Shown in pieces: positions 54,435 through 63,780 of a stretch of DNA of 64,000 nucleotides. A program made the translations under genes and the position numbers. The DNA comes from a virus, in IMG/VR virus record IMGVR_UViG_3300047470_000212, positions 32,001-96,000 of that record; one strand, written 5' to 3'. Each line of letters begins with the position of its first letter. Position 1 is the first letter of the stretch. Below the pieces are notes generated by a model. It did no database searches. It worked only from the letters and a program-made list of their open reading frames with translations, and was not told the DNA's origin.

Positions 54435-54458
54435 CAAGCGGTCTCGACAACCCGCTTG
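54435..54458. promoter_or_regulatory. Palindromic operator-like site between divergent genes
   Basis: CAAGCGG-N10-CCGCTTG; same geometry at six other sites. Confidence 0.6.
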
Positions 54459-55001: not shown

Positions 55002-56078
55002 CTACTGCGCCCGCCGCAGTGGTACGACGTTCTCCTGGCTGACCATGGCGGTCAGGAACGGCTTGCCCTTCATGGTCTCGTCACGGCGCCTGCGCTCCGA
55101 GGACAGGCCCAGGTACCGCTCGGTGGTTGCCATGTTCGAGTGGTGCAGCAGGGCCGAGACCGTACGGAGCGCAGCGTCGTATCCGACCTCCGTGGACAGC
55201 GCGTCGAAGTAGGCACGGGCCACCGCCCGGCGGATGGTGTGGGTGCCCTCGTAGCGGGTCGGCAGGCCCACGGCGGCCAGCGCGTGCTTGACGATCTTCT
55301 CCGTGCGCTGCACCGGCCGGTCCGGGTGCCACATGAACGGCGTGCGGACGTAGACCCGCTGGCCGGTCTCCTTGTCCAGGTAGTGCGTGGCGATGGTGTT
55401 GCCGGTACGGGCCGGGAAGAGGTAGTCGTCCGCGCGTAGGGGTCGGCCCAGCAGCTCGGCGTACTCGACCAGCCATACGCGCAGCTCGCGCTCCAGGTCG
55501 GCGGTCAGGGGCATCTCGTCCTCCTCCCTGGTCTTGATCACGGTCACGAAGACCTCGGACCGCGCGAAGTCGATGTCGCCGACGCGCATGTTCGTGATCT
55601 CCGAGGCACGGCACGCGGTGTTCACGGCCGTGGCCAAGTAGGCCCGGTGCATGGCGCACTCAGCCTGGTCCAGGAGCTGGAGCAGGATGGACGGGGCGGG
55701 CTGCTGGCGGCGCCTCTTCGGTTCCGGCAGGGGGTCGACGCCGGTCAGGTAGTTGTCCAGCGGGGTGAAGCCGCTGTTCTTGCAGAAGGAGAAGAACACC
55801 TTCAGCCGGGCGCGGTAGTTGTTGTGGGTGCCGGGGCCGACGGCCTCCCGAACCGGCTGTCCCTTGATGCGGGTGGAGTGGGTGTCCATGATCCCGCCGG
55901 GCCCGTAGAAGAAGTCCCGGACCTCCACGGCGCTCAGCTTGTCGAACTCCAGGTTGCCCAGGTGCTCGACGAACCGGGGCAGCAGAGTCTCGTCGACCCT
56001 CATCGTGTTGTCGGCCTTGCCGGAGCGCTTACGGATGTCCAGGTACTCCTCGACGGCGCTGCGCAGTGCGATGGTCAC
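55002..56078 (-). CDS. Tyrosine recombinase/integrase
   Basis: TACRASE (R), K, HTIRR, LLHHS....TERY catalytic set; AGGAGG RBS before GTG. Confidence 0.92.
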   Translation of the reverse strand: MTIALRSAVEEYLDIRKRSGKADNTMRVDETLLPRFVEHLGNLEFDKLSAVEVRDFFYGPGGIMDTHSTRIKGQPVREAVGPGTHNNYRARLKVFFSFCKNSGFTPLDNYLTGVDPLPEPKRRRQQPAPSILLQLLDQAECAMHRAYLATAVNTACRASEITNMRVGDIDFARSEVFVTVIKTREEDEMPLTADLERELRVWLVEYAELLGRPLRADDYLFPARTGNTIATHYLDKETGQRVYVRTPFMWHPDRPVQRTEKIVKHALAAVGLPTRYEGTHTIRRAVARAYFDALSTEVGYDAALRTVSALLHHSNMATTERYLGLSSERRRRDETMKGKPFLTAMVSQENVVPLRRAQ

Positions 56079-56187
56079 GCTTCCTCCTGGTGCGGGGTTG
56101 GCTGCGTGTCCGACTCTACAGACGTCAAGCACATTCATCAAGATGATTGCGTAGCACTTCTTGAGAAGCGATAGTAGGGTGTGCGTC

Positions 56188-56346
56188 ATGGAAACCAACG
56201 CGCTTCATACCTCGGGGCTCACCGAGCCCCAGAGCAACATGACCGTCAGCCTGACGAACAACCGCATGGAGGACAGCCGCTGGAACCGACTCCTCACCAT
56301 CCTCTTCACCCCGCAGGACGAGGACGCCCAGGCAGCCACCGCCTAG
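56188..56346 (+). CDS. Small protein (52 aa), possibly leaderless
   Basis: TAGGGT -10-like box 7 nt before the ATG; in-frame CTT-CAT-ACC at codons 6-8. Confidence 0.55.
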   Translation: METNALHTSGLTEPQSNMTVSLTNNRMEDSRWNRLLTILFTPQDEDAQAATA

Positions 56347-56468: not shown

Positions 56469-58553
56469 ATGGCCAGCATAGCGGCCGAGCGGGCCCGTGT
56501 ACGCGCGCAGAAGGTCAACGGCACCCGCCCCGGAACCCCCGGAACCTTCCAGTCCAGCACCGCCCTCGCACGCATCGTCAAGCGTGTCGGCGCCTACCTC
56601 CGTGTGTCCACCAAGGACCAGATCGTCGGCTACGGCCTCGACGTCCAGCTCAAGGGCATCCAGGACAACATCGACCTCAAGAACGCGACGGAAGAGCGCA
56701 ACGGCACCAACATCGTCTGGGAACTCTCCGACGTCTACGAAGACGCGGGCGAGTCCGGCGCCAAGCAGGACCGGCCCGAGATGATGCGCCTGGAGCGCGA
56801 CGTCCTCGCCAAGAAGATCGACGTCGTCGCCGTCCACAAGTTCGACCGCATCGGCCGCACCGGCCGCGCCTTCTGGCACTGGGTCTGGGCCCTCGAAGAT
56901 GCCGGAACCTCGATCATCTCCGTCACCCAGGAGATCGACACCACCACCACCCACGGCGTCACCGCGCTCCAGCAGCTCGCATCCTTCTCCGAGATGGAAT
57001 GGCGCACCATCCTGGAGCGCACCCAGAACGGCCTCAACATGAAGGCCGCCTCCGGAGGCTGGACCGGTGGCCCCCCGCCCTTCGGCTACTACATCGAGAA
57101 CCAGGGCAAGCGCGACTCCAAGCTGGGCCTCGATACCGAAGAGTGCCGCACCCTCGAACTCGCCGCCCAGTTCATCGTCGAAGGCGGCTACACCGTCGAC
57201 CGCGCCGCCCACATGCTCAACCTCATCGGCCGACTCACCCGCAAGGGCGTGGAGTGGACCGGATCCAACCTCCGGCACAAATTCTTCAACACCGCCCTGG
57301 ACGGATTCGTCGTCTACCGAAACACCGACGAAGTCGTCAACAAGCGCCGTAAGCGCGCCACCCGGATGAACCCTGACGGCACCCCCAAGCACGGCCCCAT
57401 GGTGATCATCGACACCCCGATGGTCTTCGAACTCGACCGGCTCATCTCCATCCGCCACGCCCTCAAGCGAAACGGCTGGAACCTCACCGGCCCGTACAAG
57501 TACCACCCCCTCAGCACCCGCGTGATCGGTGAATGCGGCGCCCACTACACCGGAGTCTGGGTAAAGGCCGAGAACCGCCGCACCTACCGCTGCACCGGAA
57601 ACAAGTGCGGCGACTCCGTGATCGACGCCGTGGCGCTCGAAGAAGTCGTCTGGGACAGCCTGAAGAACTTCCTCGGCGACAAGGAGAAGCTGCGCGAGAT
57701 CGCCAAGGACTGGGTGACCACCGCACCGGATCACCGCAAGATGTACGAGGCTCGTATTGAAGAACTCACGCGGGAAATCGCAGGTCTGCGTGAGCTGACC
57801 ACCACCACGCTGGTCAACCTCGCGAAGGCGGGCGTCGATGCGCTGGCCATCAATTCAGCAGTGGCGAAGCTGAACGAGGAGATCAACAACAAGCAGGCGA
57901 TGCTGGACGACGCCGTGTCGATGCTGGCGGAGGCGGAAGAGTCCGCTACTCGCGCCGAGGATTTCCAGCGCCTGGTCGAGATCGCCACCTTCAACCTGGA
58001 GTTCATCACCGACCGGCAGAAGGCCGAAGTGATGGACCTGCTGGAGATTCAGGTGACGCTCATCGGGCCGGTTCCGCTGGACGGCCGCTTCGGGCCGGAC
58101 TCCGACATCGAGCAGTGGTTCGGAAAGCGCAGTGTTCAGCCGGTCGAGATGACCGATGCGCTGTGGGAGGAGATCCGTCCTCGGATCAGCTTCCGGGCCT
58201 CGAAGAAGAGCCACGATCTGCGGGGGCTGGTGGAGGGTCTGCTCTACAAGGCCCGCACGGGTTGCCCGTGGTCTGAGATGCCGGAGCACTTCCCGCCGAA
58301 GGAGGCTCTGAGGGCCCGCTGGAGGGCCTGGAAGGACGGGGCGTGGGAGAACATCGTCGAGCCTCTTCTGGAGCCCGCTCCGCCGCGTAAGCCGCCGCTG
58401 CCGCCCATGAAGGTGACGGGGAACATCGACCCCCGTCTGGTCGAGTTCACCAACGGTCAGGCGACGAGCCAGGTTCCGCACTCTGCTGGACGAACTTCCA
58501 GGGGATTGTTCACGTACGTCATCAACCTGGAAAAATGGCGATTGGCCGCCTGA
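56469..58553 (+). CDS. Large serine recombinase with an inserted IS5-type DUF4096 domain
   Basis: YLRVST catalytic Ser, D.G.SG...RP, DRIGR, GG.PPFGY, Zn-ribbon cysteines, coiled coil; AAGGAG RBS. Confidence 0.93.
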   Translation: MASIAAERARVRAQKVNGTRPGTPGTFQSSTALARIVKRVGAYLRVSTKDQIVGYGLDVQLKGIQDNIDLKNATEERNGTNIVWELSDVYEDAGESGAKQDRPEMMRLERDVLAKKIDVVAVHKFDRIGRTGRAFWHWVWALEDAGTSIISVTQEIDTTTTHGVTALQQLASFSEMEWRTILERTQNGLNMKAASGGWTGGPPPFGYYIENQGKRDSKLGLDTEECRTLELAAQFIVEGGYTVDRAAHMLNLIGRLTRKGVEWTGSNLRHKFFNTALDGFVVYRNTDEVVNKRRKRATRMNPDGTPKHGPMVIIDTPMVFELDRLISIRHALKRNGWNLTGPYKYHPLSTRVIGECGAHYTGVWVKAENRRTYRCTGNKCGDSVIDAVALEEVVWDSLKNFLGDKEKLREIAKDWVTTAPDHRKMYEARIEELTREIAGLRELTTTTLVNLAKAGVDALAINSAVAKLNEEINNKQAMLDDAVSMLAEAEESATRAEDFQRLVEIATFNLEFITDRQKAEVMDLLEIQVTLIGPVPLDGRFGPDSDIEQWFGKRSVQPVEMTDALWEEIRPRISFRASKKSHDLRGLVEGLLYKARTGCPWSEMPEHFPPKEALRARWRAWKDGAWENIVEPLLEPAPPRKPPLPPMKVTGNIDPRLVEFTNGQATSQVPHSAGRTSRGLFTYVINLEKWRLAA

Positions 58554-61410: not shown

Positions 61411-61653
61411 TTAGATATGAAGACCGGCCTTCTTAAGCTGATTCTTGGCCTTGATCCAGCCAGGGGTCGCTCCGGTTAGCCCGCTGATGCAGACCGTGTT
61501 CCCCTTTGGGTCGACCCACCGGATGTGGTTTCCTCCGGTGACTGTCACCGTCCATTTGTCCTTTCGCGCCTTCTTTACGACCTTCTCGATCTCCTTGTCG
61601 GCTCCGAGTCGGCCAGAGCTGCTGCTGGCCACTGGTGCACCCTTGCGGGCCAT
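61411..61653 (-). CDS. HicA-like (dsRBD-fold) mRNA interferase
   Basis: VK.A....W.V...GGNH.....P.G..V.........LKKAGL; AAGGAGG RBS. Confidence 0.65.
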   Translation of the reverse strand: MARKGAPVASSSSGRLGADKEIEKVVKKARKDKWTVTVTGGNHIRWVDPKGNTVCISGLTGATPGWIKAKNQLKKAGLHI

Positions 61654-61701: not shown

Positions 61702-61731
61702 AGACTAGGGTGACGGATTATCAGTTAGCAA
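61702..61731 (-). promoter_or_regulatory. HrdB-type promoter for the HicA-like gene
   Basis: TTGCTA-18-TAGTCT. Confidence 0.55.
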
Positions 61732-61848
61732 GCGGTTAGGGGGATTTACTTGACGTGACCCGGACCACAAACCACTGGTAACCCCTTGACCTGCGGAAAC
61801 TTGCCTCCCTGGCATATGCCAACCTCTGAGCGGTCCTGCACAGCACGA

Positions 61849-61879
61849 AGCCCCGACTGCCAGTGTGGCAGCCGGGGCT
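61849..61879 (-). terminator. Terminator hairpin
   Basis: AGCCCCGACTGCCA/TGGCAGCCGGGGCT. Confidence 0.6.
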
Positions 61880-61893
61880 CGGCAGGGCGCGGA

Positions 61894-62412
61894 TCAGGCC
61901 TTGGTCCGGAGGGCTTCCAGGGTCTTGGCCAGCAGCGCGGAGTACTCCTCCTGGTGGGCGGCGATCAGGGCGGCCACGGCCATCTCTGTGGCCTTTTCGA
62001 ACCGCTCCCTGTCCCGCTTCTCGTCTCCGCGAGCCGTGATGGCCGCGTTGCTCTCGGCGCAGGCGTAGTACAGGCCGTTAGCCGCCAGGCCTGCGGATGG
62101 CAGCCCGATCGCGTACCACTCGGGGCCGTTGTGGGCGAACACCTGGCCGTCCTTGAACATCTTCTCCAGCAGCCGCTCGGCGGCCGGGACGTCGATGACA
62201 CGACGAGCCCAGGTGATCTCCGGGACGTTCCAGTCCCGGTCGGCGGTCACCGCTTGAGCGCACGCTACGAAGATGTCCTTCTTGCTCATGACGGCGTTGC
62301 CGAGGCGTTGCGGATCCCACTTGCCGAGGACGGCGAGGATGTCCTCCTTGGTGACCTCGACCTTCTCGACCACGGGGTCTCCGCCTACGGGGTAGCGACG
62401 GGGTCGGCTCAT
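61894..62412 (-). CDS. Hypothetical protein
   Basis: AGGAG RBS; 172 aa. Confidence 0.7.
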   Translation of the reverse strand: MSRPRRYPVGGDPVVEKVEVTKEDILAVLGKWDPQRLGNAVMSKKDIFVACAQAVTADRDWNVPEITWARRVIDVPAAERLLEKMFKDGQVFAHNGPEWYAIGLPSAGLAANGLYYACAESNAAITARGDEKRDRERFEKATEMAVAALIAAHQEEYSALLAKTLEALRTKA

Positions 62413-62425
62413 AACGCTCTCCTGC

Positions 62426-63568
62426 CTACTTTCCTATCGTCTTCCTGCGGCGCAGCGGATCCTTGCGCTGGGGGTCCACGGGGACAATCTGCGTGGGCGC
62501 GTCCGTCCCTTCCGGCAGGTCCTCCAGCTTGGTCCAGTAGGGCTCGATCCAGGTGGTGGTGGACTGCGTGCGCTGGCCGGACTTCCCGGGCCCGATCCAG
62601 ACCGTCTTGAAGTGGCCCGCTCTGTGCTGCGGCCCGTACTCGACGCCCGACGGGATGGAGATGCCGGAGCGGTTCAGTGCGGCAGCCCGCTGACGGGCGG
62701 TGTGCAGTTGAGGACCGACGTACCAACCGACACGGACCCAGAACGGGTCACGTTCCTTGGGCCTTCGCCCCTTGCCGGTCTTCTTCCTGCCCTGCGCCGT
62801 CGTCCACTCCGGGGGTTCCTTGACGTCCCGGTTGTCGGTGCACAGGTAGGTGAGGACCGCGAAGGCCTTCTGGAGGATGGGCCGGAAGGTCTTGACCGCG
62901 TCGCTGCGGTCCTTCCCGTCGGCGCTTCCGCCCTGCCACTCCTCGGCGAACCGGATGGCCTCTGCGGCCGTGAATGTCTTCCGGTCCATCGGGAGGGGGA
63001 TGAGGTCTCGGTGACCTCCGGGAAGGATCTCCCCGGTGTCCTCGTCGACCACGTCGTAGCAGAAGAGGAGCGCCAGTCCGTCGCGGTCCGGGTCGTTGGA
63101 GTTGCACAGGCCCATTCCGGAGAAGCCGGTGATGAAGAAGCACCGCACGTAACCCTCTGCCAGGCCGCCACGGCCCTTGCCAGCAGGCCAAGGGTCGGGG
63201 ATGACGACCATGGGGTTGATGTGCGGCAGCTTGTTGAACAGCTCGCCGGGAACCTTGTCCATCTTGGAGCGGTACAGGGCGTCGGCCAGCTCCTGGTGGA
63301 GGTCGTAGACGACCCGACCGTTGCGCTTCCACAGCTCGCTGGCGGCGATCTCCCCCATGAGGTCCCCGGTCCGCTCCAGAGTCGCCTGGTCGAACTGGAC
63401 ACGGTCCTGGGCGTCCCAGCCGGGAGCGATCCCGCGCATCATCGAGTCGATCCGTCGCGCGATCTTCGGGATGCTGCGTAGCTCCCGAGAAGCCTCGGTC
63501 AGCATGTCCACATGAGCCATGGCGGCCTTGTGCGCCTCGGCGGCCCTGCGGGTTCGGTCTTGTGCCAT
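62426..63568 (-). CDS. AcrVA2/FinQ-like protein (tentative)
   Basis: W...VY.....L..AL......VP......LP; L.YLC; W.VG...G..L; P.HR.GH....W.G.G.....W..P. Confidence 0.55.
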   Translation of the reverse strand: MAQDRTRRAAEAHKAAMAHVDMLTEASRELRSIPKIARRIDSMMRGIAPGWDAQDRVQFDQATLERTGDLMGEIAASELWKRNGRVVYDLHQELADALYRSKMDKVPGELFNKLPHINPMVVIPDPWPAGKGRGGLAEGYVRCFFITGFSGMGLCNSNDPDRDGLALLFCYDVVDEDTGEILPGGHRDLIPLPMDRKTFTAAEAIRFAEEWQGGSADGKDRSDAVKTFRPILQKAFAVLTYLCTDNRDVKEPPEWTTAQGRKKTGKGRRPKERDPFWVRVGWYVGPQLHTARQRAAALNRSGISIPSGVEYGPQHRAGHFKTVWIGPGKSGQRTQSTTTWIEPYWTKLEDLPEGTDAPTQIVPVDPQRKDPLRRRKTIGK

Positions 63569-63603
63569 CGATCCCTCCCTGACGTGCAAATCCTACGGGC
63601 AGA

Positions 63604-63632
63604 AATCTACCCAGCACGCTACGCACTGTCAA
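63604..63632 (-). promoter_or_regulatory. Consensus HrdB-type promoter
   Basis: TTGACA-17-TAGATT. Confidence 0.75.
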
Positions 63633-63674
63633 GCGGTCTCATTAATCAGCTTGACTAAAGATTCCGGGAAGCAC

Positions 63675-63721
63675 GAAACCCCGGCCACTGCCACGGGGGG
63701 AGCAGTACAGACCGGGGTTTC
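63675..63721 (-). terminator. Terminator-like hairpin
   Basis: GAAACCCCGG...CCGGGGTTTC. Confidence 0.55.
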
Positions 63722-63780
63722 GCTGATCCTCCTCCAGCCGCTCGACCTGTCCAAGGGTGGGGCCGACCGAAGGAGGACTC

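Follow-up and report, generated by a model that had tools for sequence, protein, structure and literature searches.

A genuine, full-length member of the AcrVA2/FinQ protein family (PF26125) is encoded on the minus strand of the phage genome deposited as IMG/VR virus record IMGVR_UViG_3300047470_000212. The analysed window is a stretch of 64,000 nucleotides (nt), bases 32001-96000 of this complete 107,080-bp record, which has a GC content of 64.6% and a 127-bp terminal repeat. The gene occupies window positions 62426..63568 (minus strand) and encodes 380 amino acids (aa) from its ATG. The mechanically called open reading frame (ORF) reaches a TTG at 63589 (62426..63589, minus strand), giving 387 aa, and it is this longer ORF, not the 380-aa protein, that defines the residue numbering throughout. 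The reading that appears reasonably probable is that the gene is an accessory, self-contained cassette whose product silences a defence or competitor function. AcrVA2 is an anti-CRISPR protein from a Moraxella bovoculi prophage (Protein Data Bank (PDB) entries 7CI1/7CI2), and no other bacterial protein has so far been reported to recognise a nascent protein and then destroy the specific mRNA. FinQ inhibits fertility and is encoded by IncI plasmids, among them R621a and R820a. The family is already catalogued as PF26125, current Pfam covers the clade, and the annotation itself is ordinary; the gene is of interest as a clean case of the question of what AcrVA2 homologs target, in a genetically tractable host genus.

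The family assignment had originally been proposed from sequence motifs. It proved correct, with profile, structure and Pfam evidence in agreement. One line of evidence is a family profile, for which 116 diverse representatives were drawn from 338 matches (E <= 0.001) in a library of 1.84 billion proteins. When this profile was searched against the PDB sequences with hmmsearch, the sole significant match was AcrVA2 (7CI1_A, E = 1e-13, 54 bits). AcrVA2 (7CI1/7CI2) was likewise the sole significant match of a profile of 23 Streptomyces-type sequences (E = 6.7e-4). A single-sequence phmmer search against the PDB returned nothing meaningful, and the family profile was needed. The profile alignment pairs PHIRRGHWHGYWQGTG with the family consensus PHxRRaHFktvWtGpGr and, more weakly, AWRNTLGIYQLD with lWrrgRvvyavd. 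Comparison of the profile with FinQ of plasmid R621a (hhalign, full 363-aa ORF) gave a probability of 99.3% and E = 1.7e-20 over 251 columns, including both the W-block and the C-terminal block. The FinQ gene of R621a (L050:45396-46487, minus strand) is annotated in RefSeq as encoding 259 aa and begins 104 codons inside this ORF; the extra N-terminus aligns with the family W-block, and the RefSeq start is probably placed too far downstream.

Structure comparison points in the same direction. The AlphaFold2 model of the window protein has a predicted local distance difference test (pLDDT) score of 87.6 and a predicted template modelling (pTM) score of 0.85. A Foldseek search with this model returned AcrVA2 as its sole match (E = 1.3e-9, probability 1.0), the next match being at 0.065. 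VIA-align against 48,161 chains also placed AcrVA2 first, with Z = 16.4 and a root-mean-square deviation of 4.7 over 257 residues (model 18-354 against AcrVA2 chain 0-316), while the next best chain reached Z = 3.5. The three-domain fold of the model is that of the AcrVA2 crystal structure. The window protein, AcrVA2 and FinQ are homologous along their whole length, across all three domains.

Database annotation is consistent with this assignment. All 87 homologs found in a set of 5.8 billion proteins carry precomputed PF26125, a family named 'AcrVA2-like' in the Atlas (Pfam 38.1). The same family set is present in 29 of the 30 nearest Atlas clusters, and the top ones are automatically named AcrVA2-family. 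Scans of the protein with Pfam, NCBIfam and PADLOC returned nothing, and the silence of the Pfam scan is explained by the absence of PF26125 from the scanned copy, not by novelty of the protein. Among PHROGs, only phrog_6160 (function unknown) matched. One UniRef homolog is named 'Recombinase' and integrases are encoded nearby, but a tyrosine recombinase reading is unsupported: no recombinase appeared in the Pfam, NCBIfam or PHROG matches or among the structural matches. The actual integrases are encoded elsewhere, by the genes at 55002-56198 and 56469-58553.

The coding sequence itself is well defined. The third-position GC content of the ORF (GC3) is 0.88, and it is therefore clearly coding. 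The true start is likely the ATG at 63568, because it is preceded by the ribosome-binding site GGGAGGG (63573..63579, minus strand, 4 nt upstream of the ATG), because the phage orthologs, 379-381 aa in length, all open with MAQDRTRR, and because the Atlas record of the protein begins there. The motifs quoted in the original prediction are all found in the ORF (LWKRNGRVVYDLHQELADAL...VPGELFNKLP, LTYLC, FWVRVGWYVGPQL and PQHRAGHFKTVWIGPG...WIEP), with one correction: in the first of them, given as W..GRVVYDL, the tryptophan and glycine are separated by three residues, not two.

At the level of individual residues, the protein can be compared with AcrVA2 at positions known to matter there. The mutations H286A, R288A and H291A abolish downregulation by AcrVA2 with Cas12a binding retained, and W79A and D89A weaken its function (Marino et al., bioRxiv 10.1101/2022.11.29.518452). 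The following counts refer to the 116 family representatives. W87, within the N-terminal signature block WKRNGRVVYDLH (63296..63331, minus strand), corresponds to W79 and is tryptophan in 116/116. In the C-terminal signature block PQHRAGH (62612..62632, minus strand), R323 corresponds to R288 (arginine in 113) and H326 to H291 (histidine in 109). Three of the five residues marked by mutagenesis are consequently conserved. The column of D89 holds H98 in the window protein (family: H 55, D 49, N 8), and that of H286 holds Q321 (H 78, Q 31). Glutamine followed by histidine, the QHR form seen here as Q321-H322, occurs in 29/116, and on these counts QHR appears to be a recurrent, conserved variant or subclass of the motif. 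Further likenesses to AcrVA2 are the C-terminal blocks Y-L-C...D, VGW.xGP.L and R-x-x-H-[FW]..xW.G.G. The differences include a sequence identity of only ~14%, a length greater by ~60 residues, and QHRAGH in place of the HIRRGH of AcrVA2; FinQ also has the canonical HIRRGH.

The family is carried by mobile elements. In addition to the complete 107-kb virus, the gene was found on 31 viral contigs in IMG/VR and at 17 loci in actinobacterial genomes (Streptomyces, Kitasatospora, an Embleya plasmid, Nocardia). Relatives with 24-42% identity reside on 15 large Streptomyces/Nocardia plasmids, where every copy is annotated 'hypothetical protein', and on the Embleya plasmid. Among 50,697 isolated-phage records, megablast and tblastn found no relatives. 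One Streptomyces sp. genome (L033) holds a copy with 93% identity and identical synteny. This is a prophage copy, and the host genus is therefore Streptomyces. The phage encodes portal, TerL, major head protein, sheath, DNA polymerase, ribonucleotide reductase, and tyrosine and serine integrases, and is a temperate, myovirus-type phage. As in the case of AcrVA2, the gene is a stand-alone accessory gene on a temperate phage; unlike AcrVA2, it has no acrVA1-like neighbour. A C-terminal [VIT]-D-G-x-T-Q tag is carried by 0 of 127 proteins here. In three high-GC viral records of 59-260 kb (L025, L026 and L030), a distant AcrVA2-like gene has a gene of the Thg1-like tRNA-His guanylyltransferase cluster upstream (L026:3089-3910, plus strand, in L026) and a ParA-like ATPase gene downstream.

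Within the phage lineage, the position of the gene is constant, between a DUF7848 gene and a HicA-like gene, and its sequence is not. In the relative G403, the protein is 65% identical despite 94% identity of the major capsid protein (MCP), and the AcrVA2-like protein diverges much faster than core genes. At another locus (L014), whose allele is 70% identical, the flanks share 95-100% DNA identity, while the segment in between, which starts just past the upstream gene, includes the promoter and ends with the stop codon, shares 56-83%. This sharp drop indicates replacement of a cassette comprising promoter plus gene. The gene is consequently a swappable, self-promoted cassette exchanged between related phages. 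Pairwise ratios of nonsynonymous to synonymous substitution rates (dN/dS) of 0.12-0.31 indicate purifying selection. The ratio is lowest in the C-terminal domain (0.12-0.20) and, in divergent pairs, highest in the N-terminal part and residues 181-240 (0.39-0.58). The identity profile agrees with this pattern, residues 47-66 and 187-246 being the most variable. With its sequence divergence, its exchange between Streptomyces phages that are nearly identical elsewhere, and its recurrent QHR variant, the cassette offers a reasonable starting point in the search for a target outside CRISPR.

The cassette has its own promoter, as originally predicted. A consensus scan recovered the sigma-70/HrdB-type promoter TTGACA-17-TAGATT (63604..63632, minus strand; 10/12 consensus matches), with TTGACA at 63632-63627, a 17-nt spacer and TAGATT at 63609-63604. 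The scan found 1 site in 2.7 kb against 0.2 expected. The palindrome that had been described over this promoter is likewise present as a 7-bp, operator-like inverted repeat, GTCAAGC-N14-GCTTGAC (63628..63655, minus strand). On the coding strand its arms are GTCAAGC (63655-63649) and GCTTGAC (63634-63628), separated by 14 nt, and the second, promoter-proximal arm contains the -35 element. At orthologous loci, where the promoters read TTGACA-17-TAGGTT, both arms, the -10 (TAGGTT) and the ~30-nt leader are kept, and the bases between them vary. This conservation of the arms amid variable bases constitutes a phylogenetic footprint of a putative operator. The 5' leader (~30 nt) shows no significant RNA structure (z = +0.94), and a structured leader is ruled out by this folding result.

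The same architecture recurs elsewhere in the phage. Sites of the form TTGAC-N16-18-TAnnnT number 11 genome-wide, all on the minus strand, and in 10 of them (G/T/A)CAA(G/A/T) lies ~16 nt upstream of CTTGAC. The pattern CAAG-N15-17-CTTG occurs 13 times in the genome, compared with 3.1 +/- 1.8 expected from Markov simulations. Ten of the 13 copies are intergenic, every one with N16, and six copies, of which five are intergenic, overlie complete TTGACA-N17-TAnnnT promoters of the coding strand. The arrangement GTCAAG-N16-CTTGACA-N17-TAGnnT is found at ~10 intergenic sites: at window positions 63628-63655, 61729-61752 and 54435-54458, and at genome positions 8216, 9447, 17203, 18300, 20399, 21997 and 105547. 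The copies lie mostly within the replication/early region of the phage, and the ~10 sites look like a single regulon with a common putative operator. A candidate for the protein that binds it is a WhiJ-type helix-turn-helix (HTH) regulator (HTH_31 + DUF5753, 299 aa), encoded together with an overlapping DUF397 partner at genome 96685-97778 (plus strand; L131:685-1778), with the HTH gene itself at 96685-97584. This pair lies on the minority strand, 1.1 kb upstream of the AcrVA2-like gene, and may represent a Streptomyces developmental-regulator pair co-opted as a phage repressor. The layout resembles that of operons of anti-CRISPR (Acr) and anti-CRISPR-associated (Aca) genes, in which a strong promoter overlain by an inverted repeat drives a counter-defence-type gene and a local HTH protein acts as autorepressor. 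It differs from them in that the inverted repeat recurs at ~10 phage promoters and is not private to the gene, and in that the unit itself contains no HTH gene, the nearest candidate being the opposite-strand WhiJ-type gene at a distance of 1.1 kb.

The limits of the transcription unit are probably marked by hairpins. Upstream, a perfectly paired 11-bp stem (CGAAACCCCGG...CCGGGGTTTCG) forms a hairpin ahead of TGCTT (63674..63722, minus strand). This hairpin probably terminates transcription of the DUF7848 gene on that side and sets the 5' limit of the unit; a counterpart is kept at orthologous loci. Downstream, a gene of 172 aa with its own AGGAGA (61894..62412, minus strand) starts 13 nt past the AcrVA2-like stop codon and is probably co-transcribed with it. 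Its product has no Pfam or PHROG match. It is present at 5 of ~22 orthologous loci, which rules it out as an obligate partner, and it is a second, variable accessory cassette. A further hairpin, whose 14-bp stem is trailed by GGGGCTTCGTGCT (61849..61879, minus strand), is probably the terminator and 3' limit. With hairpins on both sides and its own promoter, the unit therefore has a moron-like terminator-promoter-gene(s)-terminator layout. The next operator/promoter copy, GTCAAG-N16-CTTG at 61729..61752 (minus strand), drives the downstream HicA-like gene. The 80-aa HicA-like protein (window 61411-61653, minus strand) matches the HicA toxin weakly, in Pfam at E = 0.004, below the cut-off, and in PHROG 353 at E = 7e-4, and no obvious HicB partner is adjacent.

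The original prediction described the protein as a candidate translation-dependent mRNA silencer, and this is a fair inference from family membership, drawn by analogy with AcrVA2. According to the proposed mechanism, host RNA polymerase would transcribe the gene from the promoter type common to ~10 early-region phage genes, and this promoter would probably be gated by a regulator of the phage that occupies the inverted repeat overlapping the -35. The protein would then use its N-terminal and middle regions, which vary more, to bind one specific protein of the host or of a rival element during its translation. Loss of the target's mRNA would be brought about by the conserved C-terminal [H/Q][x/H]R-x-x-H domain and would silence a defence or competitor function. 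No conserved partner gene is common to all context groups in the 34 loci compared, and the protein therefore presumably works with host machinery. AcrVA2 likewise works with host machinery when it is expressed by itself in Pseudomonas.

The target of the protein is expected to differ from that of AcrVA2, which is Cas12a. A search with the Cas12a model TIGR04330 (cas_Cpf1), in which no positive-control genome gave a signal, found no match in any of 401 genomes from the host genus and none in the prophage-bearing genome. Cas12a, not found in the genomes searched, is an unlikely target. Most of the ~1,800 AcrVA2 homologs are found in bacteria without Cas12a, and non-Cas12a roles have been predicted for homologs (Marino et al.).

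Several points weigh against the silencing cassette as described. The negative result for Cas12a comes from a search without a positive control. The mechanism would be carried over by analogy from one studied member at ~14% sequence identity, and AcrVA2's own mRNA-destroying step is unexplained, which leaves no catalytic site for comparison. The window protein has glutamine at the position of H286, whose H286A mutant loses activity, and H322 next to it may or may not take over its role; the equivalent of D89 is histidine. Expression timing and the operator-binding protein are inferred only.

The alternative that fares best accepts the same family and the same action and assigns the protein a role in competition between mobile elements, similar to FinQ: it would silence a gene of a rival plasmid, an integrative and conjugative element or a superinfecting phage residing in Streptomyces. 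This is a real but distinctly less probable option. FinQ blocks transfer of the F plasmid and reduces the level of tra mRNA (Marino et al.), so that a mobile-element-encoded family member with a non-CRISPR target is reported to lower its target's mRNA, although FinQ is borne by enterobacterial plasmids and its target is F tra expression. The plasmid-borne relatives in Streptomyces, Nocardia and Embleya fit such a role, and the temperate nature of the phage, with two integrases and a prophage copy, makes a lysogen-protecting function conceivable. On the other hand, the operator is shared with early-region promoters, and if the prophage repressor binds there, the gene would be off in the lysogen. 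Furthermore, no rival-element target can be named.

A second alternative concerns the active motif. The Q321 protein could be a decayed or neofunctionalised member that only binds its target, as a stoichiometric inhibitor or adaptor, without mRNA loss. The H286A mutant of AcrVA2, which binds Cas12a stably without downregulating it (Marino et al.), provides a model for such behaviour, and the window protein has glutamine in exactly this column. Nevertheless, the combination of glutamine and histidine is shared by 29 of the diverse representatives, R323 and H326 are kept, and dN/dS is lowest in the C-terminal domain. A recurrent QHR form and a constrained C-terminus suggest a conserved functional variant rather than decay, which makes loss of the silencing activity rather improbable.

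It had also been suggested that the protein reads a heptamer of the phage genome. The heptamer excess itself is genuine: in the whole genome (G000), the coding strand holds 47 copies of CTTCATA and the opposite strand a single one, with 1-3 expected. Each of the 31 copies that fall within called genes is in frame 0, encoding Leu-His-Thr or Leu-His-Ile, and 27 of 29 Leu-His-Thr (LHT) tripeptides use CTT-CAT-ACN, although CTT and CAT make up only 7% of Leu and 12% of His codons, respectively. By our estimate, ~4 LHT tripeptides would be expected from composition. The extended consensus is G-CTTCATA-CC. Copies in the window include those at 2586, 8217, 22802, 37809 and 61422; several heptamers of the phage lie in mini-ORFs between genes, and the HicA-like 80-aa protein terminates in one (…GLHI*). 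According to the suggestion, the protein would read in-frame CTT-CAT-A(C/T) heptamers and thereby control the phage's own translation or mRNA stability. If this were true, the phage would have turned a family known for mRNA decay in response to nascent peptides to the regulation of its own genes, at a site defined by codons.

The co-occurrence of gene and heptamer bears on this suggestion in both directions. Both are present in the window phage, G402, G403 and G404 (34-47 copies vs 1-3), which form one sub-clade with MCP identities of 86-94%. Among relatives with MCP identities <= 83%, the gene is absent from all 8 records (6 of them >= 99% complete) and the excess from all 5 scanned, so that both are jointly absent in five complete relatives. 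In contrast, two distant carriers of AcrVA2-like genes (G405 and G406, 37-40% identity) show no excess (5:2 and 1:0). The association is that of one clade and one possible event, confounded by kinship. Moreover, recognition by AcrVA2 is peptide-based and codon-independent (Marino et al.), whereas the heptamer is codon-locked in rare codons, a mismatch already pointed out in the original prediction. The heptamers are dispersed along genes (median relative position 0.42), with 5/47 in the first 15 codons and 11/47 in the last 15, and are not N-terminal. The protein is only 56-70% identical between phages with the same, invariant heptamer and is cassette-replaced, unlike a core regulator of >40 sites. 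The gene's own LHT, at residue 295, is indeed encoded CTG-CAC-ACC; this had been interpreted as avoidance of the heptamer, an interpretation that did not hold, as L295-H296 is a conserved family position (L295 invariant and H296 in 22/23 of the Streptomyces clade) written in the genome's normal codons. A heptamer-reading function has no positive support, and a functional tie between the AcrVA2-like protein and the clade-specific, frame-locked G-CTT-CAT-ACC motif is highly improbable, as is control of the phage's own translation or mRNA stability through it.

Two further observations concern other genes of the phage and its relatives. The right arm that carries the AcrVA2-like cassette also encodes an RNA-repair type polynucleotide kinase-phosphatase (AAA_33 + HAD_PNKP; genome 105637-106827, minus strand; L131:9637-10827), whose location fits a counter-defence region. 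In the complete relative G404, the major head protein gene (G404:C1:56514-58343, minus strand) matches in four pieces, 86-100% identical and separated by gaps of ~265-285 nt, a pattern suggestive of introns, or of insertions of another kind, within the capsid gene.

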